A stretch of 64,000 bases of DNA from Patescibacteria group bacterium (GCA_018823045.1 JAHJIX010000020.1:20370-84369), one strand, 5' to 3'; positions 11,143 to 61,561 are shown, numbered from the stretch's first letter. Notes: generated by a model from the letters alone, not told the origin. A program made the numbers and translations.

Positions 11143-11145
11143 AGA

Positions 11146-11651: not shown

Positions 11652-12176
11652 TTAAGATTTAAAGCGTTTTAAATCATAAAAGTAGTATCCAATAGTACTC
11701 CCAGCAACAAAAAGGACACTTAATACCTTCAATGCAAAACGAAGGGTCATTTCTCCATCTAAAAATGTGTTAAAAACACTGACGAGAGTAAATAAAATAG
11801 TCGCAACACCAACAAACATAGTAAAATAGACCAACCACTTTCTAATAGCCAAATCACGAGTTTCCTTTTCTTTTTTATAAATTGAATCAAGGGTAAATAA
11901 GGTCCCAATGTACACAGGAAACATCACAATGAGAAATGAAATTGCGCTTCGTAGTGCGCTTTTATGATATGCCCCATCATAAAAACTATTTAATGTATCT
12001 GGAATGTAAATATTAATTAACTGAAAGAGTACGGTAATTAATGCTCCTGCAGAGACATATAATGCCAAAATTGACAATAAGTGTAAAAAAAACAGCTTAG
12101 GATTGCTTCCTTTTGCTTTAGTTGCCATAAAGACGAGAATTATAATAAATAAAATGAATATAGGTATAATGAACAT
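11652..12176 (-). CDS. Integral membrane protein, unknown function
   Basis: 174 aa with about five hydrophobic helices. Confidence 0.4.
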   Translation of the reverse strand: MFIIPIFILFIIILVFMATKAKGSNPKLFFLHLLSILALYVSAGALITVLFQLINIYIPDTLNSFYDGAYHKSALRSAISFLIVMFPVYIGTLFTLDSIYKKEKETRDLAIRKWLVYFTMFVGVATILFTLVSVFNTFLDGEMTLRFALKVLSVLFVAGSTIGYYFYDLKRFKS

Positions 12177-12272
12177 ACGGGGGTATTATAGCATGGTGAT
12201 GGGTGCTTGGCTAGGTTATAAAAAACACAAAAGCAGCCATATGTAGACTGCCCGTGTGATAATAAAAACACA

Positions 12273-12641
12273 TCATTTTTCTGTACCACGTGCATAAGAA
12301 ATAACTTGCTTTAATATTTGCTTGAGTGAACCAACACCTTTTTCACTAAAATAAGGTGCCATATACTCTTCTTTCCATTTATTTTCATCTAAAGAATAAA
12401 AACAAGTATTAATCCAATAGGCACTTCGAATAATCAATACACCAAAGATATCATTATGAAAAAAATCAGAAATATCTCCATCTTTAGAAAATTGAAGTCT
12501 CGTCCCAATTCTCGTAAAATGTATTGAATTCGGAAATATTTTACAAAATTCTTCCCAAATTTCTTCATTTTCTTGATATATCCCTAAGGCTTCTTCTCTA
12601 TTTCGATAATATAAAAGCGCCTTAATGTATTTTATCATCAC
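12273..12641 (-). CDS. Hypothetical small cytoplasmic protein
   Basis: 122 aa ORF with no recognisable motif. Confidence 0.35.
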   Translation of the reverse strand: MMIKYIKALLYYRNREEALGIYQENEEIWEEFCKIFPNSIHFTRIGTRLQFSKDGDISDFFHNDIFGVLIIRSAYWINTCFYSLDENKWKEEYMAPYFSEKGVGSLKQILKQVISYARGTEK

Positions 12642-13022
12642 ACACTCTCCTTATGTTGTTGAAAGAACTATTATTAGTATGGCAGTGGGGTGTTATTGTG
12701 TCAAGGAGAGAAATACCTATCCACAACAAAATTTGACAAAAAAATCAAATAGACGTACGATTTAATTATAAATACCAAGAGAAATAGTACATATAGCTAT
12801 AACCTCAAGCGAGTCAGGGTTGGTGTGAGCCTGATAGGATATACTATATCGAACGCGTCTCTTAGATAGGTAGCAACCGAAGAAATGAATACATGTATTC
12901 AAAGTAGGTGTCGCCGGAAGATGTCCGTTATCATACATCACAGTTTATCCCAAGCAGGAGAACTGATCAAGGTTGTTTTTGCAAAAAAATAACAAAGAAG
13001 AATGGTACCACGAAGTCAATAA

Positions 13023-13078
13023 GACTCTCGTTTCTTCATCTCTATTATTGAGGTGAATTGAAACGAGAGTTTTTTTAT
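13023..13078 (+). terminator. Strong intrinsic terminator (11-bp stem GACTCTCGTTTC…GAAACGAGAGT + T7)
   Basis: Perfect 11-bp inverted repeat with a ~25-nt loop, followed by ttttttt. Closes a 350–400 nt plus-strand non-coding transcript candidate. Confidence 0.55.
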
Positions 13079-13161
13079 TAGACAAAACATATGCAAAACA
13101 ACATGACACAATATAACATGTACCGTAGATGCCTCTCTGTTGAGAGTGGTCTCTATTTATA

Positions 13162-13767
13162 TTGTGTATATATGAATGTAGTTCCTTCTCAATAGAGAGG
13201 AATACCCACAGCAAGGAGGACTACTTGCAAAGACGAATCATAGAAGCAGGGCACTACTATAGTGCCAAAGGCCCAACACAGTGGAGTGTCGTTGGATGGA
13301 ATATTTTACAAGAAATCATCACCCCTCACGACACGAGCGTATTGTTTATTGATGATGTTCATCCAATTTCAGATGTACATGCACAAGAACAATTACTCCA
13401 AACAATGCCATTTACTCCCTCTGCAGATATCACAATCTTAGAATCCGATATGATGGAATCTGCTCTCCAGAGCTTATATGCCTTACAACAACTTTCCAAA
13501 AGGAAAAAAGCACGGAGAAAAAACAAACAATGGTTTTGTTCGGGTTTCCCCATTACAAATCAACAAGAAACCCCACTTTGTGTGTTGCTTGATACAGCAT
13601 TAACACAAAAAAAACATAGTCTTGGCTATAGCTCTGGCATTAATATTCTGCCCTACTACTATGAACCAGGGCAACACGCTTTGCGTCGTCTTATTGCAAA
13701 ACTTATTCCAGAATTCCAATTAGAGATTATCTTATATGATCTCAACGGAAATTACCGGAACGTATAA
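13162..13767 (+). CDS. Hypothetical protein (start uncertain; possible TTG start at 13225 after AAGGAGGA)
   Basis: The frame opens with TTG at 13162. An in-frame TTG at 13225 is preceded by a strong SD 'aaggagga' (13213..13220). No family recognised. Confidence 0.4.
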   Translation: MCIYECSSFSIERNTHSKEDYLQRRIIEAGHYYSAKGPTQWSVVGWNILQEIITPHDTSVLFIDDVHPISDVHAQEQLLQTMPFTPSADITILESDMMESALQSLYALQQLSKRKKARRKNKQWFCSGFPITNQQETPLCVLLDTALTQKKHSLGYSSGINILPYYYEPGQHALRRLIAKLIPEFQLEIILYDLNGNYRNV

Positions 13768-27726: not shown

Positions 27727-30723
27727 TTATAACAAGCCCAAAAACTCGATTAAATCATCTGAAAAACCAACCTCTTTTAAAATAACAAGTAAATCTTTTC
27801 CTTCTGATTCATGATGATTTTTAAAATTTAATAAATTTTTTTCAAATGTTTTTTTCTTTCCAGCAGCTATAGAAATAAACTCATCATAACTCATTTTTTT
27901 ATTTGGGTAATCATAATGCGTTAAAAATTCTTTAACAGCCTTTAGTGTAGCATCATCCCCCTCAAATACTCCCTCCCATTCTATCCATGGAGTATAAAAA
28001 CTTTCAAAAAACGCCGAATAACGCTCTAATTCTTCTTTATCAATACTTGCAAATGCAACTCTCCTTTCTTGCTCTAAAATTTCTTTGGATCGTCTTTTTT
28101 TTTCCAATGGAGACATCTTTTGTTTATTTATTCTCCTTACCACAGTCTCTTTTTTGGTATCTTCATCTGTAGTTTCTTTAATCATTTCTACTTGATACCC
28201 ACCTGACTCTTCTCCTACAACTAATTCATCTAAAAATTCAGCCTCTGCACCTTCAAGCGCTTGATCTCCCCCTGCAGTCGCATCAATTGGGACAACAGAA
28301 TATGACTCACCATTTGGCCAAAGAACAAATGATATTGCATGCCCATGTTTTTTTCGCACAGAATCTCCTCCATGCACAGAAAATCCTTCCATAGTCCCAG
28401 CCAAAAAACCAGCTTTTCTTAAAAGCATACTGGTAATCAAAGCAAAATCAGCACATACCCCTGTAATTTCTTTCGACTCGGCAATACTTGGGTTCTTTTT
28501 TTGCAATTGTTTCATCCTATCTTGCGCAAATTTCAAACGAAAATTAGGTTCTCCTGTATTATTTTTTTCACTACTGACATCTCCATTATCAAAATCATAA
28601 TAGCCAATATATTTAATAAAGCTTTTTATTTCAATTAATTTTTCATGTGGTGCTAAATCTGAAATTTCCTCTAAAAATTCTTCCCAATTTGGTGCAATTT
28701 CTGTCAAAAGATCTTCAGATAGTGCTCTAAATTCTTCATGCTCTTTCTTTGCTAAAAAACTACTCTTCCAGGTATCATAATCTTCTGTTCCTAATGACTC
28801 TAAATCTGGGAAAGGACTATATTTCTCTCGAAGAATAACATCTACCAAAGATCGAGTACGACCATCTACCGTATCAATAGAATCTTCCCCAATATCAACA
28901 AAAAACCTTCCCTTATTATCTTTTTTTACAACGACTTCTTCTTTTGTTCTCCCATCATCTTTAAACGCCCGCAATTCTTCTTCATTTGTTCCTAAAAACA
29001 CAGGAATGTATATAATATGATCTTTGATTCTTTCTCCTGAAATTACAAGATCTTCCGCCATATGTGCAGTATCACTTTCCAAAGAAATATTTAAAGATCC
29101 CCACGTCTTCTTTTTCGAATCATATACTCCATATACTCCTTGCACCAGCATCTGTTCTGCAGGTAAATCTTCTCCATAACTGGATATCAACTCATGCATG
29201 ATCCCTTTTTGCTCATCGGCAATATCATCCCGAGGATTTCCACCGTCGCAAGAAGTAGTATCTTGATGAGCAAATGCATCCACATCATTAGCCTCATGTG
29301 CCTGCTCTAGTATTTCTGATACAACATCCGTCTCATAAATATCACCCTTTAAAACACCTTTTAATATCTCTGCATATGAAGACATATCTTCTTGACCAGT
29401 ATGCGCAGTCATAAACTCAAAAGGATAATCCCCTAAGGCTCTTTGTGCTTCAAATAAATCTCGTAAAACGATTTGCCCATCATCAAATAAACGAATAATG
29501 TTCCGCTTATACCACTGTTCCGCTAACTTAGACATTTGTTCATACTTTTTTAGTCGATTCAAATATAACTGATATTCTCTATATGTATCAATAGGAGCTT
29601 CAATCATGTTTAATAATTCTAATTCTCCAGTAACATCATCTTCTGATGTATTTACTTGCTCCCAAGTATCTGTACTTTCATCAAACATAATATATGCACC
29701 CTTTTTCTCAATTGCTTCTAAAACTTCTTCACGAGCCTGCTTTTCCATAATGACACTGACAACATCCCCTTTGACTCGTTTATATTTTAATTTTAAAATT
29801 TGTTCTTCAGTAATTTCAGTTGGCCACACATTTTCCAATTCTTCTAACGTTACAAATTTTTTATTAAAAAAAGATTCAATCTTTTCAAGATTCTCACTAC
29901 TGAGAGGTTGTCCATTTCCAGTAGAAGAAAACAATATTTTAAACGTAGAGTTTGGTCCATAAAAATGTTTGACTGTTTTAAATAAAGGTTCAAATATAAC
30001 TTCTTCTACAGAATGCCTATCAAAAACAAAATCACCCAACCGTTTTTTTTCATACAAAAATCTATGTGTCAAACGAAAATTATCTTCCATTAATGTTTCT
30101 CTATTTTTTTCTATATACTCGCGAATACCCCTTGGCAGTTCAAATTTCTTTGGAATCGGTCTTAATTTTTCTCTATCTCGAATCAACTCTTGAAAAAATT
30201 CATCAATAAATGCTACATATTTTTTAAAATCTATCGATACATTATGAAAACGGCTTACCATACTTTGATCCACTTCTTGAAAAGGATTTTCTAACATGCC
30301 TGCAATAACCCCCCCATGATTATAGTTCATCTCCATCCCAGGGGGGGCGCTATTCCCCCACCCCATCATTTCTTCAAATAAATCAGGATATAAAGCAACG
30401 AGTCTTTGCCCATGATGCTGTAAGGTATCCTTGAGTAATGCTTGACGCTCTGGTGTTTGCATAAAAAATTCAATCCCTTCATAGATTGAATATCCTAAAA
30501 TTTTTTCTACCACAAACATTTGCTCTTCTGCTGAAGCATTATTCAAAATATCTTCAAATCTTTCCTCAAGGTTATTAAAAAACTCTACCCTATTTTTAAT
30601 AGACTCATTATATAATACTTCTCTTTTGTTTTCTTCTTCCACTTGAGTAGAATTTTCTTGAGATCGTTTAGCCGTATCTAAATCAGGAATTCGACTATCC
30701 AAAGGCAAAAAACTATGGGGCAT
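27727..30723 (-). CDS. Large cytoplasmic protein with transglutaminase-like (papain-fold Cys-His-Asp) core; paralog of 34721..37741
   Basis: 998 aa with no signal peptide or TM. Core 'ITGVCADFALITSMLLRKAGF…HGHAISFVLWP…VVPIDATAGG' matches the GxCxxFA…H…D transglutaminase-core pattern. Long flanking regions of unknown fold. Confidence 0.6.
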   Translation of the reverse strand: MPHSFLPLDSRIPDLDTAKRSQENSTQVEEENKREVLYNESIKNRVEFFNNLEERFEDILNNASAEEQMFVVEKILGYSIYEGIEFFMQTPERQALLKDTLQHHGQRLVALYPDLFEEMMGWGNSAPPGMEMNYNHGGVIAGMLENPFQEVDQSMVSRFHNVSIDFKKYVAFIDEFFQELIRDREKLRPIPKKFELPRGIREYIEKNRETLMEDNFRLTHRFLYEKKRLGDFVFDRHSVEEVIFEPLFKTVKHFYGPNSTFKILFSSTGNGQPLSSENLEKIESFFNKKFVTLEELENVWPTEITEEQILKLKYKRVKGDVVSVIMEKQAREEVLEAIEKKGAYIMFDESTDTWEQVNTSEDDVTGELELLNMIEAPIDTYREYQLYLNRLKKYEQMSKLAEQWYKRNIIRLFDDGQIVLRDLFEAQRALGDYPFEFMTAHTGQEDMSSYAEILKGVLKGDIYETDVVSEILEQAHEANDVDAFAHQDTTSCDGGNPRDDIADEQKGIMHELISSYGEDLPAEQMLVQGVYGVYDSKKKTWGSLNISLESDTAHMAEDLVISGERIKDHIIYIPVFLGTNEEELRAFKDDGRTKEEVVVKKDNKGRFFVDIGEDSIDTVDGRTRSLVDVILREKYSPFPDLESLGTEDYDTWKSSFLAKKEHEEFRALSEDLLTEIAPNWEEFLEEISDLAPHEKLIEIKSFIKYIGYYDFDNGDVSSEKNNTGEPNFRLKFAQDRMKQLQKKNPSIAESKEITGVCADFALITSMLLRKAGFLAGTMEGFSVHGGDSVRKKHGHAISFVLWPNGESYSVVPIDATAGGDQALEGAEAEFLDELVVGEESGGYQVEMIKETTDEDTKKETVVRRINKQKMSPLEKKRRSKEILEQERRVAFASIDKEELERYSAFFESFYTPWIEWEGVFEGDDATLKAVKEFLTHYDYPNKKMSYDEFISIAAGKKKTFEKNLLNFKNHHESEGKDLLVILKEVGFSDDLIEFLGLL

Positions 30724-34720: not shown

Positions 34721-37700
34721 TTATATTGGTTCATTCACCTCTGGATATGTTCTCAATCCCAAGTCATTCCATGTAAAAGCAACCCCTTTTTTTTGTGCAT
34801 TGAGAGCATCTCTTGTTCTTGTTCTAGCTGTAATACATAATAAATGTTCTGGAATCACTGTTTTTTTTCCTTCTGTTATCCGTAAATCATGGGACTCCTC
34901 TGAACAAACATTATGGAATATATCCTTTAATAAACGCATGTCTGTATTTGGCAGTATCTCATAATAAATTCCACCATATCCTTGCTCTGTAATATAAATT
35001 GGATACTTATATTTTTTAACAAATTCTTGAACAGTATCCAAAAATAATTCTTGAGCAAGCTTATCATTTATATTAAAACCACCCAATATATCTTCAAATG
35101 CAATATACAATGGTTGTTTTTTTTGTTCAGGATCTTTTACTCTTCGTGCTACTGGGTTTTTACCAGGACGTCTTACACTTGCCGACCATATAATATCTTT
35201 CATTCTATGGATATCTGGATTATATTCTTCTGGATCAGAAAGAAAATCATTTCCACCTTTTTGGATATTTGCATGTTTTTTAAGTAAAGTAAATATTTTC
35301 TTTTTTAATACTCTTTTTTGTTTTTCTGGAATATGAAACAGCATAGCTAATTCACTATATGTTGTTTCTAGTTCATACTCTTCATTATTTTCTTCATATT
35401 CTGCTAAAATCCTTCTAAGAGTTGCATTACTTGCAGGAATGTGTTTTCTTGGACTCCTATTTCGACTATAAATTGGTGCAATATTTTTCACTTCTAATCG
35501 CCAAAATTTAGAAGGAATACCAAATGTTTCTTCTAATTTTCTTTGTACTTTTTTATTTGTAAATGCTTGGTAATAGAGCCTCCAAAAAATCTTTTCTTCT
35601 AATACCAATTTTTTATCCATCGATAATGTTCCCAATTTATTTTTCAATACATCTTCAGCAAAATCTTCTAGTTCATCATCTTCTCGTTGCATTTTTTCTA
35701 AATCGTTCATATCTATCTCTTGAAATATGGTATACACAACATTTTCAAACTCTGGACTAAACGAAAAATGAGTAAAATCAATTGAAATATTTTCCTCAAT
35801 CCTATAAATCTCGCCACAATATTCTGGTGAAATACACAATGCATAAAAATCTTCAATATCTTTTATTTGCTGAATAATTTCTTCTCTTCGCTCTGAAAAA
35901 TCTTTTGCGATTATTGGATTAAACAAAAATTCACCTAGATTAGAAAGATACTCAATCTTGTCACCACGAAGTAATGCCTCAATATCTTTGATGTCATCCT
36001 GAATTGTAATAGTAGGAATGTCACCAAAAGCAATTTGTTTTTCGCTACAAATTCTTACAATATGACGAATTTCGTTCACCCGATATAATAATTCACTTAA
36101 ATCTAACTCTCTTATCAACTGTGTTCCTTTATATAAATCATGATATGCCTGTATTGTATCACCACTTATTTCTATCTGATGCGTTTTTTCTATTCTGGCA
36201 TGTTCTTCTTCAAATGAAACTGGTAAAATTTGTCCTACAAATTCTACTCCTTCCACAGGATTCTCTACCCTTGGAGCAAGATTAGCTGCTTGATTTGGAT
36301 ATTTTTCTATGACACGCATAATATCTAGACGCATATCACGCAGTAAGTGTCGTTTTTCCTGTTCATTTTCTGCTTGAGCATATTTTTTCTTAAATGCTTC
36401 AAATAACTCTTGTGGGAAATAATTATCTAGAGAAGAAGCCACTTCACAAAATGTAGTGGCATCAAATACCTGTAAATTATGATGACGATCTGGAATCTGT
36501 ACCCGCGCATGTCCACTTACCGCAAAAGCAGTTCCATCCTTTGTTGTGACTTTTTCATGTGTAATAATTGCTGGGATACCTAATTGTCTAAAATATACTG
36601 ATGAAACCCAAGAAAGATAATCACAATGCCCCATTTGTAATTCATCCATAATCAGTGGTAACTCATCACTATTATGACGCAAAAAATCACCAAGTGTTTT
36701 ATGATTGACATAATAAAAATGCTTCCGAAGATGTCCTGCAATCAAAGAAGGGATATCCTCAGGAAATTTTTTTGCATGTTCTTTTATCTGTTCTGGTAAG
36801 GGTAATACTGCTGACCAATACTCTTGTTCCGCTTGTGAAGGAGTAAATTCATTTGTATTTAATTGAATTAATCGTTTATCTTTTTCAATATAATACTCGT
36901 TTACATGTCCTTTTACTAAACGAGTAGTTAATGGGTCGCTCGGATGATTTATAATACAAGAAGCAGATTGATCTACTGCAACCAAACGTCCCCCCAATGG
37001 CATTGGAATCGTTTCTCCCTCCCAAATAGAACCTGCTGAACTTATTTTTATTTGATTAGGCAAACTATGATCTTGCTGTGGTATATTTTGAATAAATCCT
37101 TTTACAGCAGCATAATTTTCATCATATTGTAAATCTGTAGGAAGTATACGGGGTGATAAACCACGTGCTGTGGGAGTTGCAATTTCATATACAAAAGAGG
37201 TACTTGGTACTGGTGGATAAATCTTTCCTCCAGCACCTTTTCCTTCTAATTCCTCTAGATTCCGTCCGATACTATCCATAGCAGATAAAGAGGTTTCCAT
37301 TCCAGTAATCCCCATTTCTTCTGGCTGCTGAATTTTTAAAATATCCTGTGGGAGAGCCTCTCTGTATGAGACAGCAGAGGGTGTTTTTATCACACCTTTA
37401 ATCCGAGTAATTTGTATTTGTTCTTGCTGAAGTTTGTCCTGCAACTCATCAATTTGTGCTAATAACATTTCATGACTTATATCTTCTGATATAGCATACC
37501 TCTCAAAAAAGACTTTTTTTGCCGCTTCAGCATGTATTTGACTATGATCTGATTTTTTAGATATATCAGTTGTCAAAATATGACGAACATAATCCAAAAA
37601 ACTTTGTTGTGCTTCTAGTCCTTGATGAAAAACATTCTTATACCTTTCCACTTGATCTAAAAATGCAGATCCTTCAGGATTGATAACAGGAGCCACTTCT

Positions 37701-37741
37701 TTAAATGATGGTATAGAGATTCTTCCTTCAGCCAAATTCAT
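34721..37741 (-). CDS. Large cytoplasmic protein with transglutaminase-like Cys-His-Asp core; divergent partner of the T4CP-like operon
   Basis: Start set at the internal ATG at 37741 ('MNLAEGRISIPS'). The 115 N-terminal residues of the ORF-track frame are hydrophobic read-through of the intergenic region. Core 'QMGHCDYLSWVSSVYFRQLGIP…SGHARVQIPD…LQVFDATTF'. About 1006 aa. Confidence 0.6.
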   Translation of the reverse strand: MNLAEGRISIPSFKEVAPVINPEGSAFLDQVERYKNVFHQGLEAQQSFLDYVRHILTTDISKKSDHSQIHAEAAKKVFFERYAISEDISHEMLLAQIDELQDKLQQEQIQITRIKGVIKTPSAVSYREALPQDILKIQQPEEMGITGMETSLSAMDSIGRNLEELEGKGAGGKIYPPVPSTSFVYEIATPTARGLSPRILPTDLQYDENYAAVKGFIQNIPQQDHSLPNQIKISSAGSIWEGETIPMPLGGRLVAVDQSASCIINHPSDPLTTRLVKGHVNEYYIEKDKRLIQLNTNEFTPSQAEQEYWSAVLPLPEQIKEHAKKFPEDIPSLIAGHLRKHFYYVNHKTLGDFLRHNSDELPLIMDELQMGHCDYLSWVSSVYFRQLGIPAIITHEKVTTKDGTAFAVSGHARVQIPDRHHNLQVFDATTFCEVASSLDNYFPQELFEAFKKKYAQAENEQEKRHLLRDMRLDIMRVIEKYPNQAANLAPRVENPVEGVEFVGQILPVSFEEEHARIEKTHQIEISGDTIQAYHDLYKGTQLIRELDLSELLYRVNEIRHIVRICSEKQIAFGDIPTITIQDDIKDIEALLRGDKIEYLSNLGEFLFNPIIAKDFSERREEIIQQIKDIEDFYALCISPEYCGEIYRIEENISIDFTHFSFSPEFENVVYTIFQEIDMNDLEKMQREDDELEDFAEDVLKNKLGTLSMDKKLVLEEKIFWRLYYQAFTNKKVQRKLEETFGIPSKFWRLEVKNIAPIYSRNRSPRKHIPASNATLRRILAEYEENNEEYELETTYSELAMLFHIPEKQKRVLKKKIFTLLKKHANIQKGGNDFLSDPEEYNPDIHRMKDIIWSASVRRPGKNPVARRVKDPEQKKQPLYIAFEDILGGFNINDKLAQELFLDTVQEFVKKYKYPIYITEQGYGGIYYEILPNTDMRLLKDIFHNVCSEESHDLRITEGKKTVIPEHLLCITARTRTRDALNAQKKGVAFTWNDLGLRTYPEVNEPI

Positions 37742-37878
37742 AAAATAAAAAATATTGAAATAAATAAACTTTCTTAGAGTATAGCATATTATATTTTTTA
37801 TAAAAACAACAAATTGCAAATTGAAAGATATAGTACATTTCTCATTTTTTTGATATAATAAAAGAGACTTCTTTTCTT

Positions 37879-38439
37879 TTGTTATATATGCCATCTTTTT
37901 TGCAAAAAAATGATCAAGAATCTCCAGGGATTCCTTTTGAACAAACACCACAATCACTGGAATACATCCCACAACAACCAGAACAGCCCATCCAAGAACT
38001 TGGGCCTGAATTTGAATTGACCAAAGAAAACATTCCTCAACCACAAGAACAAGAAGAAACTGTTGATTCAGCAATTCACTCACTCAAGAAAAAACTTCGT
38101 CGTCAAAAAAAGGCAAAACCAACGAGCATTCCGATTGTGCGCGACAAGCTCACTCTTGAAGTAGAGCATATTATGGAAGAAGGGCTCAAAGAAGCCTTTA
38201 CTTCTCTCTCCCCTATTGAACGACAAGAATTTAAAATAAAAGGAGAACAAACAGCAATTCAAATTAGACAATTACTCAAAAAAACACATGTAAAAGTAAA
38301 ATCAATTTTCAAACTCCTTTTTGAATGGTTAAAATTACTTCCAGGGGTCAATCGATTCTTCTTAGAACAAGAAGCAAAAATTAAAACAGAAAAAATACTT
38401 GGTCTCCACGAAAAACACAAAGCCATGAACAAATTTTAA
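37879..38439 (+). CDS. Hypothetical protein with P/Q/E-rich disordered N-terminus and basic helical C-terminus
   Basis: 186 aa. 'PQQPEQPIQELGPEFELTKENIPQPQEQEE' low complexity. 18 nt upstream of the T4CP-like gene, so probably co-transcribed. Confidence 0.4.
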   Translation: MLYMPSFLQKNDQESPGIPFEQTPQSLEYIPQQPEQPIQELGPEFELTKENIPQPQEQEETVDSAIHSLKKKLRRQKKAKPTSIPIVRDKLTLEVEHIMEEGLKEAFTSLSPIERQEFKIKGEQTAIQIRQLLKKTHVKVKSIFKLLFEWLKLLPGVNRFFLEQEAKIKTEKILGLHEKHKAMNKF

Positions 38440-38457
38440 ATCGCATTTCCATACAAT

Positions 38458-41028
38458 ATGCTTTTTCAATTAACGATTAATCCCTACGGCCAATCTCCTG
38501 TTGCGGGTGTACAAATTACAGAACAAATGCTCATGATTGGGTTATTTATTCTTTTTATTGTCACTATTCTTTTAGCGGGACTCTTTATCCTCCGCGCAAT
38601 ACTTCATAGTAAAAATGAAAAATTAGCCGCATTTAACCGAGTGGTCATGCAAATACAAGTGCCAAAAGAGAGAAAGTCCGAAGGACAAGGCGGGCAAGCA
38701 GGAAGTGATGATCGATTAGAGCATATTAAAGAAGAAATTGGAATTACTGAAACATTTTTTTCTACTGTAGCAGGGCTAAAAGCAAAAAAAGGATTCCTAC
38801 ATTGGTTTAATGGAAAATCAGAAGATATCGCATTTGAAATCGTCATGCACAATGGCCTTATTTATTTTTATATTGATGTCCCAAAAAAGATTCAGTCATT
38901 TATTGAACAACAAATTCATGCGCAATACCCACATGCAGAAATTGACATCATGACTGACTATAATATTTTTACCGAACAAAGTACTATTTTAGGTGCTTAC
39001 CTATATGCAGAAAACAAACATGTCTTTCCGTTTAAAACATACAAAACAATGGACTCTGACCCATTGTCGGCGATATTAAATGTTCTTGCAAAAATTAGAG
39101 AGCATAATAGTAGTGCGGCAATTCAATTTGTGGTACGTAGTGCAAAAAAATCATGGCGTAGTGAAGGAATTCGGATTGTGCGAGAAGTAAAACAAGGAAA
39201 AAAGTTTGAAGATGTCACAGAAAAATCAGCACTCAAAAGTTTTTTCAAAAATAGTGGAAAAACAATGGGTGAACTTCTTCGAGACAAAAAGAAAGATGAA
39301 GCACCAGAAAAACAATACCAACTCTCTGGCATGGAAGAAGAAATGTTAAAAGGGGTAGAAGAAAAACTCAGCAAAGGTGGAATTGAAGTCACTTTACGTG
39401 TTATGACAGCGTCAGACAACCCGATACTCGCACAAAGTCATTTAGATAATCTGCTCAATTCATTTAGTCAATACAACCTCTATCGCTACGGAAATAGTTT
39501 TAAAGCAGCGGTTCCTCGAAATCAAAAAAGATTAATCCAAGATTTTATTTATCGAACATTTGAACCAAAATGGGGCATGACGTTTAATACAGAAGAAATG
39601 GCTTCTGTCTGGCACTTACCTCTTCATTCAACTGAAGCCCCAAATATTAAATGGCTATCAGGAAGAAGTGCACCACCACCACCGAATTTGCCAGATTCAG
39701 GATTACTTATGGGTTTTGTTGACTATCGTGGGCAAAGAAATGATGTTTTTCTAAAAGAAGCAGACAGACGACGCCATCTCTATATTATCGGAAAATCTGG
39801 AAGTGGTAAATCAGTAACAATTGCAAACTTAGCTATTCAAGATATTCAAGATGGCAAAGGAGTATGTATTGTTGACCCACATGGAGATTTAGTTGAAGCA
39901 GTACTCCAACATGTTCCAAAACACCGTGCTGATGATGTTATTATTTTTAATCCATCTGATTTAGATCGTCCAATTGGACTAAACATGCTTGAACCAAAAA
40001 CAGAAGACCAACGAGATTTTGCTGTACAAGAAATGATTGGAATTTTTTATAAACTCTTCCCGCCTGAAATGATTGGACCAATGTTTGAACATCAAATGAG
40101 AAACGTCATGTTAACGCTCATGGCCGACATCAATGATCCTGGAACAATTATTGATATTCCACGGATGTTTACTGATGATGATTATGTCAAAATTTATCTT
40201 GATCGCGTGACAGACCCAGTTGTGCGTGCATTTTGGGAAAAAGAAATGGCAAAAACAAGTGACCATACCAAATCTGAAATGCTTGGATATTTGGTTTCTA
40301 AAGTTGGACGTTTTGTTGGGAATGAAATGATGAGAAACATTATGGGACAACAAAAATCTGCGCTTGACTTCCGTGATATCATGGATAATGAAAAAATATT
40401 ACTCGTCAATCTTGCAAAAGGAAAAACAGGAGAAGTCAACTCAAAACTTCTTGGATTAATTATTGTAGCAAAACTTCAAATGGCTGCAATGGGGCGAGCT
40501 GACATGGAAGAAGCAGATCGAAAAGATTTTTATCTCTATATAGACGAGTTCCAAAACTTTATTACAGACTCTATTTCAACTATCTTATCTGAGGCACGAA
40601 AATACAAACTCGATTTAATTGTTGCCCACCAATATATGGGACAACTCGTTGATGATAAAGGAAAAGCAGACGTACGCGACGCAATTCTTGGAAATGTAGG
40701 TACAATACTGTCTGGACGTATTGGTCCTGATGATGCAGAAATTTTAGCAAAAGAATTTGCACCAGTGTTTGGATCATATGATCTCATCAATGCACCACAA
40801 TATTCTTTTTATGCAAAGATGTTAATTGACAATCAAGCAAGTAAACCCTTCCTCATGCGTGCTTATCCACCAAAAGAAGGAAACAAAGAACTTGCTGCAG
40901 CAATTACTCAACTCTCTCGTTTAAAATATGGACGAAATAAACAAATTGTTTCTGCTGAAATTATTGAACGGTCAAAACTTGGTGAAATCACAAAAGGAGA
41001 CACATCACTATCTGAAGCAAGTTTGTAA
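38458..41028 (+). CDS. Membrane-anchored type IV coupling protein-like ATPase (VirD4/TrwB/TraG family) with ~390-aa unique N-terminal domain
   Basis: N-terminal TM 'MLMIGLFILFIVTILLAGLFILRAIL'. Walker A 'RRRHLYIIGKSGSGKSVTIANL…GKGVCIVDPHGDL' (TrwB_AAD_bind-like). Walker B 'FYLYIDEFQNF'. C-terminal 'LDLIVAHQYMGQL…ILGNVGTILSGRIG' (TraG-D_C-like). Confidence 0.65.
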   Translation: MLFQLTINPYGQSPVAGVQITEQMLMIGLFILFIVTILLAGLFILRAILHSKNEKLAAFNRVVMQIQVPKERKSEGQGGQAGSDDRLEHIKEEIGITETFFSTVAGLKAKKGFLHWFNGKSEDIAFEIVMHNGLIYFYIDVPKKIQSFIEQQIHAQYPHAEIDIMTDYNIFTEQSTILGAYLYAENKHVFPFKTYKTMDSDPLSAILNVLAKIREHNSSAAIQFVVRSAKKSWRSEGIRIVREVKQGKKFEDVTEKSALKSFFKNSGKTMGELLRDKKKDEAPEKQYQLSGMEEEMLKGVEEKLSKGGIEVTLRVMTASDNPILAQSHLDNLLNSFSQYNLYRYGNSFKAAVPRNQKRLIQDFIYRTFEPKWGMTFNTEEMASVWHLPLHSTEAPNIKWLSGRSAPPPPNLPDSGLLMGFVDYRGQRNDVFLKEADRRRHLYIIGKSGSGKSVTIANLAIQDIQDGKGVCIVDPHGDLVEAVLQHVPKHRADDVIIFNPSDLDRPIGLNMLEPKTEDQRDFAVQEMIGIFYKLFPPEMIGPMFEHQMRNVMLTLMADINDPGTIIDIPRMFTDDDYVKIYLDRVTDPVVRAFWEKEMAKTSDHTKSEMLGYLVSKVGRFVGNEMMRNIMGQQKSALDFRDIMDNEKILLVNLAKGKTGEVNSKLLGLIIVAKLQMAAMGRADMEEADRKDFYLYIDEFQNFITDSISTILSEARKYKLDLIVAHQYMGQLVDDKGKADVRDAILGNVGTILSGRIGPDDAEILAKEFAPVFGSYDLINAPQYSFYAKMLIDNQASKPFLMRAYPPKEGNKELAAAITQLSRLKYGRNKQIVSAEIIERSKLGEITKGDTSLSEASL

Positions 41029-41082
41029 AATAGAAACAACTACGCTATAATATACTTTCTATTCACAAAAATAAATATACAT

Positions 41083-41703
41083 ATGGATCATATTGGATCA
41101 ATTTTACAACCACCTGCAGGACAAAAAATTGTCAATCAAGAAGAAAACACATTCCATCTTGATCTTGACACAATCGATATGCAAGATACAGAACAAATTT
41201 CTGCAGGAACAACAGAATTAAAAAAAATGATCTATCATATGCAAGAGCAACTCAACACAATGCTCTCATTGATTGAATCTGGTATTCCACTTCCAACAGC
41301 AGTCAAACCTATATTAAACAACACAGAAGACGACTCAAACGCAATTGAAGGAGTGTTTAATGGTGAAGCAATGATTGGAGAAGATGGCAATACATATACC
41401 ATTCCACCAAACTACGCAAGTAAATCTAAACTCATTGAAGGCGACTTACTAAAAGTAACCGTTGACCCTACTGGTCGCTACATCTTTAAACAAATAATGA
41501 AGACCGCACGCAAGCTTGTTAAAGGATCACTGATTAAAGGAAATGACGAACACAAATGGCAAGTACTTGTTGATGGTCGCATATATAAAGTGCTGACTGC
41601 CGCAGTAACATTCCACAAAGGTATAGAGGGTGCAGAAGTAACACTCATTATTCCAGAAAATGGAGAAAGTGACTGGGGATCAATTGAACGCATTATTTCT
41701 TAA
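41083..41703 (+). CDS. Hypothetical protein, last gene of the T4CP-like operon
   Basis: 206 aa with no TM or signal peptide. 54 nt downstream of the ATPase gene. Followed by terminator 41740..41767. Confidence 0.45.
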   Translation: MDHIGSILQPPAGQKIVNQEENTFHLDLDTIDMQDTEQISAGTTELKKMIYHMQEQLNTMLSLIESGIPLPTAVKPILNNTEDDSNAIEGVFNGEAMIGEDGNTYTIPPNYASKSKLIEGDLLKVTVDPTGRYIFKQIMKTARKLVKGSLIKGNDEHKWQVLVDGRIYKVLTAAVTFHKGIEGAEVTLIIPENGESDWGSIERIIS

Positions 41704-41739
41704 ACTATTAAAACTAGCTAAATACCATCAATAAAAAAA

Positions 41740-41767
41740 GAAGTACTTTATTAGTACTTCTTTTTTT
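41740..41767. terminator. Bidirectional intrinsic terminator (GAAGTACT-TTATT-AGTACTTC + T7)
   Basis: Perfect 8-bp palindrome flanked by A-run and T-run. Lies between the convergent 41083..41703 (+) and SWIB (-) genes. Confidence 0.6.
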
Positions 41768-42186: not shown

Positions 42187-43806
42187 ATGGCACTTTACCA
42201 CACCCACCGACCACAAACTTTTGATGATATTTTAGGACAAAAACACATCATTCAAACAATCACGAACCAAATCCTACAAGAAAAAGTAGCCCATGCATAC
42301 TTATTTTTTGGTCCTCGAGGTATTGGAAAAACTACCACAGCAAGACTACTAGCAAAAGCTGTTAATTGTACAGAAAAGAAAAAAGACACATATGAGCCAT
42401 GTAACACTTGTGCGGCCTGTACAAGCATTACACAGGGGTCTGCTATTGATGTGATTGAGATTGATGCAGCAAGCCACACTGGTGTTGATCACGTTCGTGA
42501 ACACATTATTGAAAACGCTCAATTTAAACCAACAACTTGTGCCAAAAAAGTATTTATTATCGACGAGGTGCACATGCTTTCAACCAGTGCATTTAATGCG
42601 CTCTTAAAAACACTCGAGGAACCACCGGCACACGTCATGTTTATTTTAGCTACAACAGAATTACATAAACTTCCTGCAACCATTATTTCTCGCTGTCAAC
42701 GATTTACGTATGAATCAATTAGCCACGACGACTTACATGGCTATTTAAAAAATATTGCAAAAAAAGAAGGGCGAACACTTGATGAAGATGTCATTGAGCG
42801 CATTATTATAAAAAGTGATGGCTGTGTGCGTGACGCAGTAAGCTTACTTGAACAAGTTCTTTCTTTTGGAAGTGAACATATTACAATTAACGATGTACTT
42901 CATATACTTCCTCCCGTATTTTCAGAAGATACACGAGAACTGGTATTTTCTATCCTTGAAAATAATCCAACAGAAGCACTTCACAAATTGCACCACATGT
43001 ATGCACAAAATATGCATATGATTGAATGCATCGATACATTAATTGATGTACTACGCACACTCATGATTACTTCTGTGAATCCAACAGCAATATCAAACTA
43101 TGGTTTTGATAAAGAAATTACAAAAAAAATCAAATCCTTCCATAAACAATATAAACCAAATTACTACATTACACTTATCGAATCAGCAATGAAACGTAGA
43201 GGTCTCATTAAACAAAGCCCAATTGAGACACTTCCATTGGAATTATTTATTATCGAATGGACAGACACGACAAAAGCAACTACTGTTATTTCAGAAGAGC
43301 CAGTTCCTACTCCCCCACAAGAAAAAGCGCCAAAGCTAATAGTAGAAACACCTGCTCCAGCAGCTCCTAAAAAAGTTGAAGAAGAAATACCTACACCAGA
43401 AGAACCGGCCCCTGTAGCAGAAAAAAAAGCGCCACAAGAAACTCCTGCACCTCTACCAGAAACATCTTCTGAACCAATGGCAATCACAAAAGCAAATATT
43501 TTATCTATCTGGAATGCCTTTTTAGAACGAGTAGAAAAAGAATCCGCATCACTTGTCTATATTGTAAAAACACTCGAAGTGGTATCAATAAAAGATCAAC
43601 TTATTACCTTTACGGTTCCATTTGCGTTTCATAAAGACAAACTTACTGATACAAATTGCCAAGCAAGTCTGACACAAGCACTCTCTGATTTGCTACAAAC
43701 CCCTGTTTCATTTGAAATCGATGTTGTTAAAAAAGAAGGAGATGGGACAGCCCCTGCAAAAGACATTCAACAAGTTGCAGATGCATTTGGTGGTGAAGTC
43801 ATGTAA
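42187..43806 (+). CDS. dnaX: DNA polymerase III subunit gamma/tau
   Basis: 'HAYLFFGPRGIGKTTTARLLAKAVNC', zinc module 'CNTCAACTSI', 'IIDEVHMLS' and sensor 'SRCQRF'. P/E/A-rich linker before the C-terminal domain. Confidence 0.85.
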   Translation: MALYHTHRPQTFDDILGQKHIIQTITNQILQEKVAHAYLFFGPRGIGKTTTARLLAKAVNCTEKKKDTYEPCNTCAACTSITQGSAIDVIEIDAASHTGVDHVREHIIENAQFKPTTCAKKVFIIDEVHMLSTSAFNALLKTLEEPPAHVMFILATTELHKLPATIISRCQRFTYESISHDDLHGYLKNIAKKEGRTLDEDVIERIIIKSDGCVRDAVSLLEQVLSFGSEHITINDVLHILPPVFSEDTRELVFSILENNPTEALHKLHHMYAQNMHMIECIDTLIDVLRTLMITSVNPTAISNYGFDKEITKKIKSFHKQYKPNYYITLIESAMKRRGLIKQSPIETLPLELFIIEWTDTTKATTVISEEPVPTPPQEKAPKLIVETPAPAAPKKVEEEIPTPEEPAPVAEKKAPQETPAPLPETSSEPMAITKANILSIWNAFLERVEKESASLVYIVKTLEVVSIKDQLITFTVPFAFHKDKLTDTNCQASLTQALSDLLQTPVSFEIDVVKKEGDGTAPAKDIQQVADAFGGEVM

Positions 43807-58003: not shown

Positions 58004-59983
58004 TTACCACGCAAAAAGTGTTTGAACAGGACCATATATGCCCCTAATTTTTGCAATACGATCTTCATCAAAACTATACACATACACTTCCTTACCATTT
58101 GCCGGTGCAACAATAAGTTCTGCCTTTCCATTATGCGTATAATCCCCCAAAGCTATAGTTCTTTTTGTTTTTTTGTCATACGATAGAGGATATATCGTAT
58201 TTATCCATACTCCCTCATAATTATATCTTTCTATCGCAGACCAATCATTTCCTCCTGGAATCAACACCACTTCAAATATACCATTTCCATTCGTATCAGC
58301 AAGTACAAGCTCTTCTGCATGTTTTTTAATCACCACATGTTTTACTGCTTCTTCATGAAAAGTATATATATCAATAACAGTTTCTTGCTCTTCACTTGAC
58401 CACAATACGACTTGTTCTTTTTGGCTTACAGCATCATACACTGAAGTAAGCAAGACATTTGTATATACTATATTTCCTTTTTGTTCAAATAATAATACAC
58501 CAGACAAAGAATACACTTGATATACTATTCCCTCTTTCTTTGGTGAAAATAATACAATTTCAGGTTCAAATCCATCAAGCACATCAATCAACTGTAACTG
58601 ATCCACAGAAGAAATCATCATATCAATGGCAAGAGGAATTTCCATACCACCATACTGAATAGACACTTGATCATTTTTTGCAAACAAATAATACTCTTTA
58701 TCATCTCTATCTCTATATACATCTACCAGTGATGCGAAGTCTTCTCCATCAACACTTGCAGAAATATTTCCTTTTTTATATGTTGATAAAGTTCCATTTG
58801 TCGCAATACCTGATACTTTTTGTATTTTTTTGTCAGAAACGATTTGTTTTTGTGCATACAACAATGCATCATCAATTTGTAGTAATCCCTTTCCAAATAA
58901 ATGCGCATACGTTTCTTCATCTTCTGGGGGTGTTTTATGTGCTGTTTTAAGTAATGCCGCATAAATTTCTTTCGCTCCCCATGTTGGTTGTACTGATTTA
59001 ATTAATCCAGCAGCAGCACTAATATATGGAGCCGCAAAAGAAGTTCCACTCCAACCACTACCATATGCTTCGGTAAAACCATCTTTTGGTGCATAACGCA
59101 ATACACCCGAAATTTCTTCTCCTGGTGCGGTCAAATCAATAGAAGAAGAACCAAAATTAGAAAAAACGGTAATATGATGTTGTTTATCTATTGCACTCAC
59201 ACCTAATACTTTTTGCACAGCACTCCCCTGATCTGCAGAAATTGGATAACGTGGACTATCATCTAAAAAGAGATTGTCATTCCCAGCCGCAGCAACAACA
59301 ACAACTCCATGCTCATAGGCATAATCAATTGCTTGAGTAATCATTTCTTCTTCTCCAGTGCCCACTAAACTCATGTTAATTACATCTGCACCATTATCTA
59401 CCGCATAATGAATAGCTTCATCCATAGCATCAAGTACACCAAAACCAGAATTATCTACTACACGAATATTCATAAGAGAAACGCGTTGCATTATACCACT
59501 CCCTAGATAATTATTATTTCCACGTGCACCAATAATACCTGCAACAATAGAACCATGATTTAATACCTCGGGATACGCATCATAAGAATATGCGGCCGCT
59601 GTTTCTGGAAGAACACGATTATTTCCTTTTTTTTCTTCTGCATCAATTTCACCATCTCCATTTATATCTACATGAAGAAAGCTCCAACCCCAAACATCAT
59701 CAATATAACCATTATGATCATCATCTATACCATTTTTATCTATTTCATCTACATTTTTCCAAACATTTGGTCGTAAATCAAGATGATGCATGTCAAATCC
59801 ATTATCAATCACAGCAATAATCACATCACGAGAACCAACAAAACCATGTTCCCACGCCTCATATACTTGTGTATCTTCATATCCCCACTGCCGAGCAAAT
59901 GGATCATTTGGAAATGCAGCATAAACACTCAAAGGGGTGACCATTGCAGCACAAACAAGGCAGACGAGTAATAATTTTTTCAT
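58004..59983 (-). CDS. Secreted subtilisin-like (S8) serine protease with C-terminal extension
   Basis: Signal peptide 'MKKLLLVCLVCAAMVTPLSVYA' (start moved to 59983). Catalytic Asp 'AVIDNGFDMHH', His 'HGSIVAGIIGA', Ser 'GTSFAAPYISAAAGLI'. ~250-aa C-terminal domain. Confidence 0.85.
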   Translation of the reverse strand: MKKLLLVCLVCAAMVTPLSVYAAFPNDPFARQWGYEDTQVYEAWEHGFVGSRDVIIAVIDNGFDMHHLDLRPNVWKNVDEIDKNGIDDDHNGYIDDVWGWSFLHVDINGDGEIDAEEKKGNNRVLPETAAAYSYDAYPEVLNHGSIVAGIIGARGNNNYLGSGIMQRVSLMNIRVVDNSGFGVLDAMDEAIHYAVDNGADVINMSLVGTGEEEMITQAIDYAYEHGVVVVAAAGNDNLFLDDSPRYPISADQGSAVQKVLGVSAIDKQHHITVFSNFGSSSIDLTAPGEEISGVLRYAPKDGFTEAYGSGWSGTSFAAPYISAAAGLIKSVQPTWGAKEIYAALLKTAHKTPPEDEETYAHLFGKGLLQIDDALLYAQKQIVSDKKIQKVSGIATNGTLSTYKKGNISASVDGEDFASLVDVYRDRDDKEYYLFAKNDQVSIQYGGMEIPLAIDMMISSVDQLQLIDVLDGFEPEIVLFSPKKEGIVYQVYSLSGVLLFEQKGNIVYTNVLLTSVYDAVSQKEQVVLWSSEEQETVIDIYTFHEEAVKHVVIKKHAEELVLADTNGNGIFEVVLIPGGNDWSAIERYNYEGVWINTIYPLSYDKKTKRTIALGDYTHNGKAELIVAPANGKEVYVYSFDEDRIAKIRGIYGPVQTLFAW

Positions 59984-59984
59984 A

Positions 59985-61490
59985 TTATAATGGAATAACT
60001 GACCCATATTGGGTACTTAAGGGATCTCTAATATACTCACTTGATTCTAAAATATACCACTTATTCCTTGGAGTAAATGGCAGTTTAAATGGAGGTGTAA
60101 TTACAAAACGTAATTGAAAATTATTTCCCTCGAATGCTTTCCCATGAATATTATCACTTAGATACAATATATCATTACTTTGGTGAAAATAATAGAATTT
60201 TTTATCACTCCACCATTTATAAACAACACTCCCATACGGAAAACTATAGGTATTTTCTGGAATCGCTATTAATTCACCAAAACCATTCGGACTTTGTCTA
60301 AGCAATATTTCATCACCATCACCAATTCCATCTTCATCTGTATCTACTTTTTTGGGATCAGTAAACCAATACATAATTTCTTCATAATCACTCAGACCGT
60401 CCCCATCACTATCATCTTTTGTATCACTTGATCCATACCACTTTTCTGTTTCTTTATCAATACCATCACGATCAGCATCATTTGCCCTTGATTCTGTAGT
60501 AAGTGAATGAATATTATACCCACCCATGACATATGGAGGTACTTCTAAAATACGTTCTTGCCATGTTTCTCCATATAAGATAAATGCTTCTGATTGAGAG
60601 CGCAATGGTCGCAACATACATCCCGGCTCTGGGGCATAAATTCTTGGAGATTGAGAAAATTTTAATAACCATGTCCCTGGACGCATACACACCATTGAAC
60701 CAACAAAATATTCCTGTAATTTAGTATCACTTACATGCATAACACTTGCAAATCCAGGCAAATATGACTGATATACAGCACTATTTGGCACAGGATGCAT
60801 TCTTCCACCATATCCAATGTAATATACAGTCGTACCTTGTCCTTTTACAAAACTTCCTTCAGAAAGTGTTCGTTCTGGAGCATTAAATTGTATTGCCTTT
60901 TGCATATTTTTTATTGTTCCTTGTGCATCACGAAAACGAAAATAAACAATCTTTTCTCCAGAACCACTAGAAAGCACCCATTGTATTTTTTTAGCTATTG
61001 GACGATAAGATACACCCGTAAATGTTGGTTCATTACTCACCATCATATCATCAACTCCAATACTCGCCTCAATATCAATGGTCACATAGCGTGAATCAGT
61101 CTGGCGTTTATCATTATCAATAGCAACACTAACAGACATATTCGTCTGTGCCGATAATTGTATACTATCAGTATATACCCCACTTAAACTTGCATTTGCA
61201 TATTGAAACTGAACATATGCTGTTTTTACTCCATTGCCAAATGGTAATTCCCAAGAAGAAACATGCTGGCGCACAGCAACCCACGTATCATCTTCCATAT
61301 TACTATCGTCTGAAATACGCATATATTTTGCTCCACTTGTTGGAACAATATAGAGATGGACATAATGTGACTGTACTGATGAATCACCACCGTTTATGGT
61401 GACTCCTGGCTCTGCGGCAGAAACAAGTGAAACCACAAAAAATAAAGAAAATACAGTACAAATACTAAAGATATATTGAATTCTTCGCAT
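59985..61490 (-). CDS. Secreted protein with thrombospondin-type-3/dockerin-like Ca-binding Asp-rich repeats
   Basis: Signal peptide 'MRRIQYIFSICTVFSLFFVVSLVSAAEP' (start moved to 61490). 'DADRDGIDKETE', 'DSDGDGLSDYEE' and 'DTDEDGIGDGDE' repeats. Its stop codon is 1 nt from the subtilisin ATG. Confidence 0.5.
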   Translation of the reverse strand: MRRIQYIFSICTVFSLFFVVSLVSAAEPGVTINGGDSSVQSHYVHLYIVPTSGAKYMRISDDSNMEDDTWVAVRQHVSSWELPFGNGVKTAYVQFQYANASLSGVYTDSIQLSAQTNMSVSVAIDNDKRQTDSRYVTIDIEASIGVDDMMVSNEPTFTGVSYRPIAKKIQWVLSSGSGEKIVYFRFRDAQGTIKNMQKAIQFNAPERTLSEGSFVKGQGTTVYYIGYGGRMHPVPNSAVYQSYLPGFASVMHVSDTKLQEYFVGSMVCMRPGTWLLKFSQSPRIYAPEPGCMLRPLRSQSEAFILYGETWQERILEVPPYVMGGYNIHSLTTESRANDADRDGIDKETEKWYGSSDTKDDSDGDGLSDYEEIMYWFTDPKKVDTDEDGIGDGDEILLRQSPNGFGELIAIPENTYSFPYGSVVYKWWSDKKFYYFHQSNDILYLSDNIHGKAFEGNNFQLRFVITPPFKLPFTPRNKWYILESSEYIRDPLSTQYGSVIPL

Positions 61491-61561
61491 AAATATGGTA
61501 CAAATATAATGAATTACTTCCTTTAGTATACAAAAATCTAACAATAAACGCAATAAAGACT

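Follow-up and report, generated by a model that had tools for sequence, protein, structure and literature searches.

A conserved coupling-protein operon on the core chromosome of Patescibacteria and the orphan giant gene beside it

A contig of a Patescibacteria group bacterium (GCA_018823045.1, JAHJIX010000020.1:20370-84369; the whole stretch of 64,000 nucleotides that was analysed is called the window below) carries, at positions 34,721 to 41,767, a three-gene operon for a membrane-anchored ATPase and two small proteins (the products of genes 1 and 3), which faces a gene for a protein of 1006 amino acids (the giant). The ATPase resembles the coupling proteins of type IV secretion systems, and the locus thus raises the question of what such a protein does in this setting and whether the giant has any part in it. 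An earlier reading of the nucleotide sequence by itself (the original prediction) had regarded the giant and the operon as one divergent module, possibly a secretion, host-interaction or defence device. Our analyses separate the two. We read the segment 37888–41767 as a Patescibacteria coupling-protein operon whose ring ATPase would deliver a nucleic-acid or nucleoprotein substrate, most likely to a chromosomal secretion system encoded elsewhere, with the gene 3 product as a single-strand-binding accessory and the gene 1 product as an adaptor, and we assign this reading a probability of roughly 60%. The giant is a strain-specific orphan in a variable position, outside the conserved unit.

The ATPase is a VirD4/TrwB-type coupling-protein homologue

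The second gene of the operon encodes a VirD4/TrwB-type coupling-protein homologue with intact catalytic residues, as had been supposed from its motifs. The protein scores above the cut-offs of the Pfam models T4SS-DNA_transf (42 bits, cut-off 20.1), TrwB_AAD_bind (41.5 bits, cut-off 20.5, with the match spanning profile positions 12–329) and TraG-D_C (30.8 bits, cut-off 22), and it is matched by DUF87 as well. A profile search against the PDB retrieves TrwB and DotL, and structure searches retrieve VirB4, TrwB, HerA and DotL. From the N-terminus onwards the ATPase consists of a short segment, one membrane helix, the domain DUF8128, a nucleotide-binding domain interrupted by a helical insertion, and finally a disordered tail (table 1). 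An AlphaFold2 model calculated from 34 relatives, with a predicted local distance difference test score (pLDDT) of 85.3, displays a long N-terminal helix (residues 20–59), an alpha/beta region (60–400) and a RecA-like ATPase domain with eight helices at 516–643, and 365 of the 420 residues of TrwB align to it in Foldseek. The N-terminal anchor and the RecA-like domain of the HerA/FtsK superfamily with its Walker A and B motifs are shared with VirD4, TrwB and TraG; the helical insertion, at the site of the all-alpha domain, is shared with TrwB.

The Walker A, Walker B and C-terminal motifs quoted in the original prediction are indeed present, and the residues G445, G448, G450, K451, D696 and E697 are invariant in an alignment of 34 relatives that are 31–71% identical to the window ATPase (alignment A3). 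Likewise, the N-terminal helix, at residues ~24–48, is the single hydrophobic segment of the protein (hydropathy window 15–52, peak 3.06). It is followed by basic residues, which would therefore place the rest of the ATPase in the cytoplasm.

A conserved operon that does not include the giant

To delimit the conserved unit, we ran hidden Markov models (HMMs) of the gene 1 and gene 3 families on all open reading frames (ORFs) of 86 loci (L001–L086), four of which are the window's own contigs or duplicates of a relative. The gene 1 family occurs directly upstream of the ATPase gene in 34 of the 86 loci and the gene 3 family downstream of it in 29, which bears out the proposal that genes 1–3 form an operon. 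The conserved unit is thus a small protein gene, the ATPase gene and the 206-aa gene, usually followed by dnaX, in one large branch of Patescibacteria. Nearly all loci with gene 1 or gene 3 have an ATPase at least ~42% identical to that of the window, gene 3 being found also in the more distant L037 and L043; genes 1 and 3 seem to be specific to a branch comprising, among others, Magasanikbacteria, Uhrbacteria, Falkowbacteria, Buchananbacteria and Komeilibacteria.

According to a synteny table compiled with phmmer, 29 related loci have dnaX on the same strand after the ATPase gene or after gene 3, and in L088 the order is a small gene, the ATPase gene, gene 3 and directly dnaX. In the window, where a SWIB/MDM2-domain gene intervenes, the operon sits in a core chromosomal setting, between metG-cvpA-tatD and SWIB-dnaX. 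The dnaX synteny is gone from more distant loci; in distant lineages a small ORF on the same strand still precedes the ATPase gene. We rejected the idea of one universal upstream small gene, as in 20 loci (within L039–L072, labelled Staskawiczbacteria, Saccharibacteria and Moranbacteria) the upstream gene encodes 125–150 aa of another family, unlike gene 1 (hhalign probability 0.1). The C-terminus of this alternative family reads ...KGV.HAV.VA..M.DPYILD.FHD.L.

The giant has no place in this arrangement. In relatives with an ATPase 69% and 74% identical, metG is followed by the divergent small gene, the ATPase gene and a gene of ~206–234 aa, and then by SWIB and dnaX, with no giant gene between metG and the operon. 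The four-gene arrangement envisaged originally is thus not conserved in relatives: the operon is kept without the giant, and the original prediction fails by the condition of neighbourhood conservation that it had set itself. As a separate observation, the SWIB gene itself is kept between the operon and dnaX in seven related loci.

A family found throughout Patescibacteria and conserved above its neighbours

In a word-indexed search the ATPase had more than 3,218 homologues; the top 120 listed, on contigs of up to 1.2 Mb, are 65–100% identical to the query and have the same domain set, those at 99–100% being the query's own cluster. An exhaustive search of cluster representatives gave 22,430 matches at E ≤ 1e-3, of which 5,859 reach E ≤ 1e-30; full-length alignments at 35–55% identity are frequent among them. 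A scan of one genome per species detected the ATPase in at least 600 species across many candidate phyla. Judged from the best 80 of these at least 600 loci, the family extends over Magasanikbacteria, Uhrbacteria, Falkowbacteria, Buchananbacteria, Komeilibacteria, Staskawiczbacteria, Berkelbacteria, Saccharibacteria, Peregrinibacteria, Moranbacteria, Levybacteria, Woesebacteria, Daviesbacteria and Curtissbacteria. Because of these thousands of homologues, the number of species and the syntenic housekeeping flanks, we regard the ATPase gene as a core gene and not as a mobile one. Many of the species-representative contigs that bear it (L009, L011, L012, L024 and others, from third-party annotation assemblies) are titled 'uncultured Gammaproteobacteria' or 'Bdellovibrionales', although the gene is typically patescibacterial; these titles are probably taxonomic mislabels.

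The claim that the locus has no obvious described counterpart has to be withdrawn. The ATPase is an ordinary member of a known, functionally unsolved family, which is already covered by Pfam, by NCBI annotation ('type IV secretion system DNA-binding domain-containing protein') and by a recent survey (Quinonero-Coronel et al. 2025, PMC12102498). In that survey, VirD4-type homologues, 5,713 in total, occur in 2,918 of 3,035 Patescibacteria genomes, and VirB4 in 2,417 of them. The stand-alone coupling protein is thus real but already described, the window ATPase being of the same family and in the same situation as the surveyed homologues, that is, chromosomal, near-universal in the phylum and away from virB4. 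In the passages of the survey that were consulted there is no word of the small flanking genes, of the OB-fold partner described below, of the dnaX linkage or of the phage homologues. New here are the OB-fold partner and a degree of conservation in the ATPase that exceeds that of MetRS and DnaX.

This last point emerges from comparisons with syntenic relatives. The ATPase of the closest relative, L005, is 83% identical to that of the window, as against 52% for MetRS, 64% for DnaX and 63% for TatD; for L003 the values are 69% as against 46%, 43% and 46%, respectively. In a comparison with L003, L005 and L007 that also includes CvpA, the ATPase values of 83% and 69% stand against 52–64% and 35–46%. 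Judged by these identities, the ATPase is under stronger constraint than the neighbouring core genes. The small SWIB protein is also highly conserved in the same three loci (73–93%). The family is near-universal in a phylum that accounts for a large part of bacterial diversity. Together with the constraint, the dnaX linkage and the OB-fold partner, this provides handles on the role of a detached coupling protein and on the movement of nucleic acids in epibionts.

One Saccharibacteria-labelled locus (L050) carries a second DUF8128-like paralogue of 1073 aa (10226–13447, plus strand) ~1.2 kb downstream of gene 3, which fits the published mean of about two coupling-protein homologues per genome.

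Phage homologues lie in secretion-like modules

Homologues of the ATPase are not confined to bacterial chromosomes. The phage family phrog_5156, whose function is not annotated, matches residues 120–840, including the DUF8128 region (E = 2.8e-88), and according to tblastn, Bacillus phage G (gp156) and SPO1-like phages (gp27.4) encode homologues of full length. In phage G (L090, 84955–99111), gp156, which is 25% identical to the window protein over 83% of its length, comes directly after the VirB4-type ATPase gp155 (P-loop_TraG, AAA_10); the TrbL/VirB6-like gp153 lies two genes upstream and the Replic_Relax protein gp146 ~5 kb upstream. In the SPO1-like phages (L089, vB_BsuM-Goe10), gp27.4 has the Replic_Relax protein gp27.3 after it and, before it, small membrane proteins together with an actin-like protein. 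The phage clusters look like an unannotated secretion- or plasmid-like module, and their gene context constitutes independent genomic evidence for ATPases with DUF8128 in DNA-handling modules akin to type IV secretion. Unlike the window operon, the phage homologues are neighbours of Replic_Relax, VirB4-like, TrbL-like and actin-like genes, and their loci carry no annotated homologue of gene 1 or gene 3. The phage homologues also offer a tractable model system.

DUF8128 and its possible relation to VirB4

The ~390-aa domain that the original prediction had described as being of unknown fold is already catalogued as DUF8128 (PF26449), which precomputed annotation assigns to all 120 listed homologues of the ATPase. 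In its overall length and two-part layout the window protein is similar to the VirB4 proteins TrwK, TrsE and PrgJ; VirB4 proteins are not known to be anchored by an N-terminal helix of their own. Full-length TrwK/VirB4 chains (8rtd, 7o42, 7o43) rank above TrwB in Foldseek, with alignments of ~900–950 columns and TM-scores of 0.27–0.32 that are no better than for TrwB alone. None of the VirB4 models of Pfam (CagE_TrbE_VirB, AAA_10, P-loop_TraG) matches the ATPase at E ≤ 0.1, and hhalign of the ATPase against five VirB4 proteins covers the C-terminal ATPase part only (residues 413–803). DUF8128 taken alone has no meaningful sequence match in the PDB or Pfam, a PDB profile search giving designed repeat proteins. 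We therefore did not adopt an identification of DUF8128 with the N-terminal domain of VirB4, to which PDB, Pfam and hhalign lend no support while in Foldseek the alignments with TrwK extend from end to end; the domain may or may not be VirB4-like.

The two small partner proteins

The product of gene 3 has 197 detectable homologues and no Pfam domain. Its N-terminus is variable, and a motif, NYASKSKL.EGD, is near-invariant. The predicted model (pLDDT 81.6 overall, above 90 over residues 90–205) comprises a long helix (residues 42–65) followed by two OB/cold-shock-like beta-barrels, and displays the five-stranded barrel of the OB fold. Such a combination of a helix and two barrels makes the protein probably a binder of single-stranded nucleic acid. 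A relationship to MazE/AbrB was considered and rejected, as weak Pfam matches of that kind occur in only 6 of 60 members and the model gives OB barrels.

The gene 1 product falls into an N-terminal half that is disordered, variable and rich in proline, glutamine and glutamate, and a conserved C-terminal part of ~100 aa, which from its sequence pattern is judged to be helical. The residues W68, L69, P73, K85 and K87, within the motif WLK..PGVN.FFLEQEAKIKT, are invariant in the trimmed alignment. No Pfam or PDB sequence match was found for this protein, and neither it nor the gene 3 product has a hydrophobic segment.

A gene 3 homologue not beside a DUF8128 ATPase was found in a Peregrinibacteria contig (L087, JABIJZ010000002.1, 6001–6570); it is located ~1.2 kb upstream of a T2SSE/VirB11-like ATPase, which is followed by weak TrbC and T4SS_pilin matches.

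What the operon may do

According to published work, most Patescibacteria encode a monoderm-type type IV secretion system elsewhere on the chromosome. As a member of its family, the window ATPase would be anchored by one helix with its bulk in the cytoplasm, would assemble as a ring, and would burn ATP to feed a polymer substrate, be it nucleic acid or a protein–nucleic acid complex, at the membrane, probably in the service of that secretion system. The gene 3 product is a candidate binder of single-stranded nucleic acid in this process, and an adaptor role is one guess for the gene 1 product. The ring, the substrate, the interaction of the three proteins and the coupling to a secretion system are all elements that we infer.

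Several observations weigh against this reading. The ATPase scores far under the cut-offs of the NCBIfam coupling-protein equivalogs (e.g. 53 bits as against 366 for SXT_TraD), because of which we treat it as a member of the coupling-protein superfamily and not as an equivalog. Unlike VirD4, TrwB and TraG, it has a single N-terminal helix instead of the two usual in coupling proteins, an extra domain (DUF8128, ~340 aa) without counterpart in TrwB and VirD4, and small partners of its own, and it is core-chromosomal with no relaxase or channel genes nearby: as noticed originally, there is no VirB4, VirB6 or relaxase gene in the 64-kb window, nor is there an integrase gene, and in two relatives the operon has no secretion-channel or relaxase genes within 10 kb. 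Nucleic-acid binding by the gene 3 product and contacts among the three proteins are read from fold and gene order. Finally, in the survey (PMC12102498), only 148 of the 5,713 VirD4-type homologues lie near virB4, the VirD4-type homologue of Southlakia epibionticum is non-essential while its secretion system is essential, and VirD4-type homologues occur in more genomes than VirB4 (2,918 as against 2,417), some of them therefore acting without VirB4.

These points feed an alternative that we hold to be possible but clearly less probable, namely that the ATPase is an exapted motor that works without a type IV secretion system and, jointly with the OB-fold protein, acts on single-stranded nucleic acid at the membrane, for instance in the uptake of host RNA or DNA, in replication or in segregation. 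Exaptation was raised by the authors of the survey themselves, who state that it cannot be excluded. The homologues are more widespread than VirB4, seldom near virB4 and in one case non-essential where the secretion system is essential. The dnaX gene on the same strand after the operon in 29 loci, the OB/cold-shock fold of the partner and the conservation of the ATPase above MetRS and DnaX would suit such a role, and the route by which Patescibacteria take up host RNA is still unresolved in the literature. Structurally, too, the ATPase is equally close to the DNA translocases HerA and DndH (DptH), although unlike these it has no NurA, Sir2, Dnd or other such partner gene, is membrane-anchored and passes the coupling-protein models. 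What speaks against exaptation is the company of the relatives in phage G and the SPO1-like phages, which lie beside VirB4-, VirB6- and relaxase-like genes, and also the Peregrinibacterium in which a VirB11-like ATPase and weakly matching TrbC/pilin-like genes lie ~1.2 kb from the gene 3 homologue, a setting that points back to secretion. The dnaX synteny, gone in distant loci, may just reflect vertical inheritance in one class.

A more daring and rather improbable proposal is that the operon encodes a membrane motor that moves single-stranded nucleic acid via or alongside a type IV secretion pilus, the cargo being host RNA or DNA taken up as food. The gene 3 product would then capture the strand on the cytoplasmic side, and DUF8128 would be a retained VirB4-like domain, making the family an intermediate between VirB4 and VirD4. 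If true, this would explain why the ATPase is conserved above aminoacyl-tRNA synthetase and polymerase genes, and it would provide a concrete candidate for the RNA-uptake route.

Coupling proteins such as VirD4 and DotL often deliver protein effectors, and one may thus also imagine a protein-handling machine, in which the gene 3 product would sit on the ATPase as a ring comparable to the N-terminal coiled-coil–OB rings of PAN and Mpa, and the two would feed proteins to secretion or unfolding; we consider this quite unlikely. The affinity of the coupling-protein family to mobile elements and the full-length homologues in Bacillus phages might suggest a relic left by a prophage, plasmid or integrative conjugative element; this is hardly credible for a phylum-wide family conserved above core genes, in a window with no integrase, relaxase or direct-repeat-flanked island, at a locus with metG, cvpA, tatD, SWIB and dnaX in a synteny kept across relatives and with a GC content of 0.36 as against 0.35 in the rest of the window. 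Delivery of a nucleic-acid or nucleoprotein substrate to a secretion system encoded elsewhere remains our preferred interpretation.

The giant is an orphan in a variable position

A search among 5.8 billion proteins found only the 1006-aa giant itself. It has no Pfam, NCBIfam, PADLOC, PHROG or PDB sequence match, no membrane segment and no signal peptide; phmmer against the PDB gave only matches that we dismissed as chance (the cGAS-like receptor at E 0.45). Its start is variously placed, a GTG at 38083 yielding 1120 aa and another gene caller 1057 aa.

The transglutaminase-like nature ascribed to the giant stands in part. The Cys-His-Asp string is present, with C373, H411 and D428 in the canonical order and spacing demanded by a strict regular expression, and order, spacing and the local pattern G-x-C...LGIPA...GHA...FDAT are shared with Transglut_core. 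Membership of that family does not hold. Unlike its members, the whole protein has no match to Transglut_core, and a 115-aa fragment, for which this is the sole family returned, reaches 13.3 bits (E 0.1, profile positions 50–96) where the cut-off is 23. We therefore rejected an assignment by HMM, which stays below threshold even on the trimmed fragment; on its residue pattern, the giant may at most carry a degenerate papain/transglutaminase-like core.

In the closest relative, L005, the position between metG and the operon is occupied by a 1094-aa protein (6035–9319, minus strand) that has a signal peptide and internal repeats and bears no similarity to the window giant; this intergenic site tolerates genes that are large and evolve fast. 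Of the large ORFs nearby in the loci examined, only the two giants of the window (the first also on the window's own contig L002) have the Cys-His-Asp pattern, and no relative of the giant or instance of the pattern lies beside the ATPase gene in the other loci examined.

The second giant (27727–30723, minus strand) is an acidic, orphan-like protein of 998 aa without membrane segment, 4 kb beyond the first and 7 kb from the operon, the two giants lying within 10 kb of each other. It has, like the first, a transglutaminase-like Cys-His-Asp string, GVCADF...HGHAISF...IDAT, and matches Transglut_core at E 0.044 as a whole and at E 0.0034 as a fragment. BLASTP reveals no detectable relationship between the giants (E 0.11).

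The giant as a conserved partner of the ATPase was consequently discarded, as it has no homologues and no similarity to the L005 occupant or to the second giant. A single divergent module for defence or host interaction had in its favour the adjacency and divergent orientation of the genes, the plausible Cys-His-Asp string, the slightly better Transglut_core match of the second giant 7 kb from the operon and the presence of a different giant gene at the same position in the closest relative. We nevertheless judge it very improbable, since the giant is absent from syntenic relatives or, in L005, replaced by an unrelated, secreted protein, the operon is conserved without it, and the transglutaminase match is below threshold. 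Nor does PADLOC recognize a defence system: it returns generic ATPase-domain matches only (mad8 at 1.6e-17 and a weak HerA match) and leaves both giants and the products of genes 1 and 3 without a match. The position of the giant next to the operon is a coincidence, and only adjacency links either giant to the operon.

Layout of the locus and other features of the window

The four ORFs, the divergent spacer and the terminator lie where the original prediction had put them (table 1). Promoter-like consensus sites across the divergent region are not in excess (30 as against 31.4 in shuffled sequences). The terminator hairpin folds with −19 kcal/mol (z = −5.9), a stability equalled in none of 200 shuffles.

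Table 1. Coordinates of the features of the operon, the giant gene and the adjacent genes, in positions of the window.
Feature	Position	Strand	Remarks
Giant ORF	34721-37741	−	1006 aa (NCBI call)
Cys-His-Asp string of the giant	36452-36631	−	residues 371-430: GHC373...SGH411ARV...FD428AT
Divergent spacer, giant gene/gene 1	37742-37887		AT-rich, ~137-146 bp, read from sequence
Gene 1	37888-38439	+	~183 aa; alternative TTG start at 37879
ATPase gene	38458-41028	+	856 aa, VirD4/TrwB-type coupling-protein homologue
N-terminal membrane helix	38527-38601	+	residues ~24-48; hydropathy window 15-52, peak 3.06
DUF8128 domain	38635-39657	+	residues ~60-400, alpha/beta; low-confidence linker 259-283
Walker A	39790-39813	+	GKSGSGKS, residues 445-452
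Helical insertion	40003-40386	+	residues ~516-643, between Walker A and B; site of TrwB all-alpha domain
Walker B Asp-Glu	40543-40548	+	D696, E697 within LYIDEFQNF
Gene 3	41083-41703	+	206 aa
Gene 3 barrels	41341-41697	+	residues ~87-139 and 143-205; predicted model
Bidirectional intrinsic terminator	41733-41767		A7, GAAGTAC, 7-nt loop, GTACTTC, T7; separates gene 3 from the convergent SWIB gene
SWIB/MDM2-domain gene	41780-42049/42121	−	E 5.9e-31; convergent with gene 3
dnaX (DNA polymerase III gamma/tau)	42187-43806	+	Pfam families; SWIB gene intervenes

The window is AT-rich (35% GC) and looks like chromosomal DNA of a patescibacterium near Candidatus Magasanikbacteria; the identical proteins at NCBI carry the name 'Patescibacteria group bacterium'. 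The other genes of the window are housekeeping ones, encoding MreB, a class II tRNA synthetase, an AddA-like helicase-nuclease and the ATP synthase operon, and are joined by metG, cvpA, tatD, SWIB, dnaX and genes for DEAD-box helicases, a histidine kinase and glycosyltransferases. A protein with HTH_3 and a SocA/Panacea antitoxin-like domain (6078–6797, minus strand) is possibly half of a toxin-antitoxin pair. At 58004–61553 (minus strand), the gene for a 667-aa S8 subtilase that contains an FG-GAP repeat runs into the end of the gene for a 522-aa bacterial TSP3-repeat protein; both products are probably secreted or surface proteins. GC skew is below zero in every 2-kb bin of the window, and the cumulative skew drops steadily to −5.6, being flatter at 38–50 kb, where the genes turn to the plus strand.

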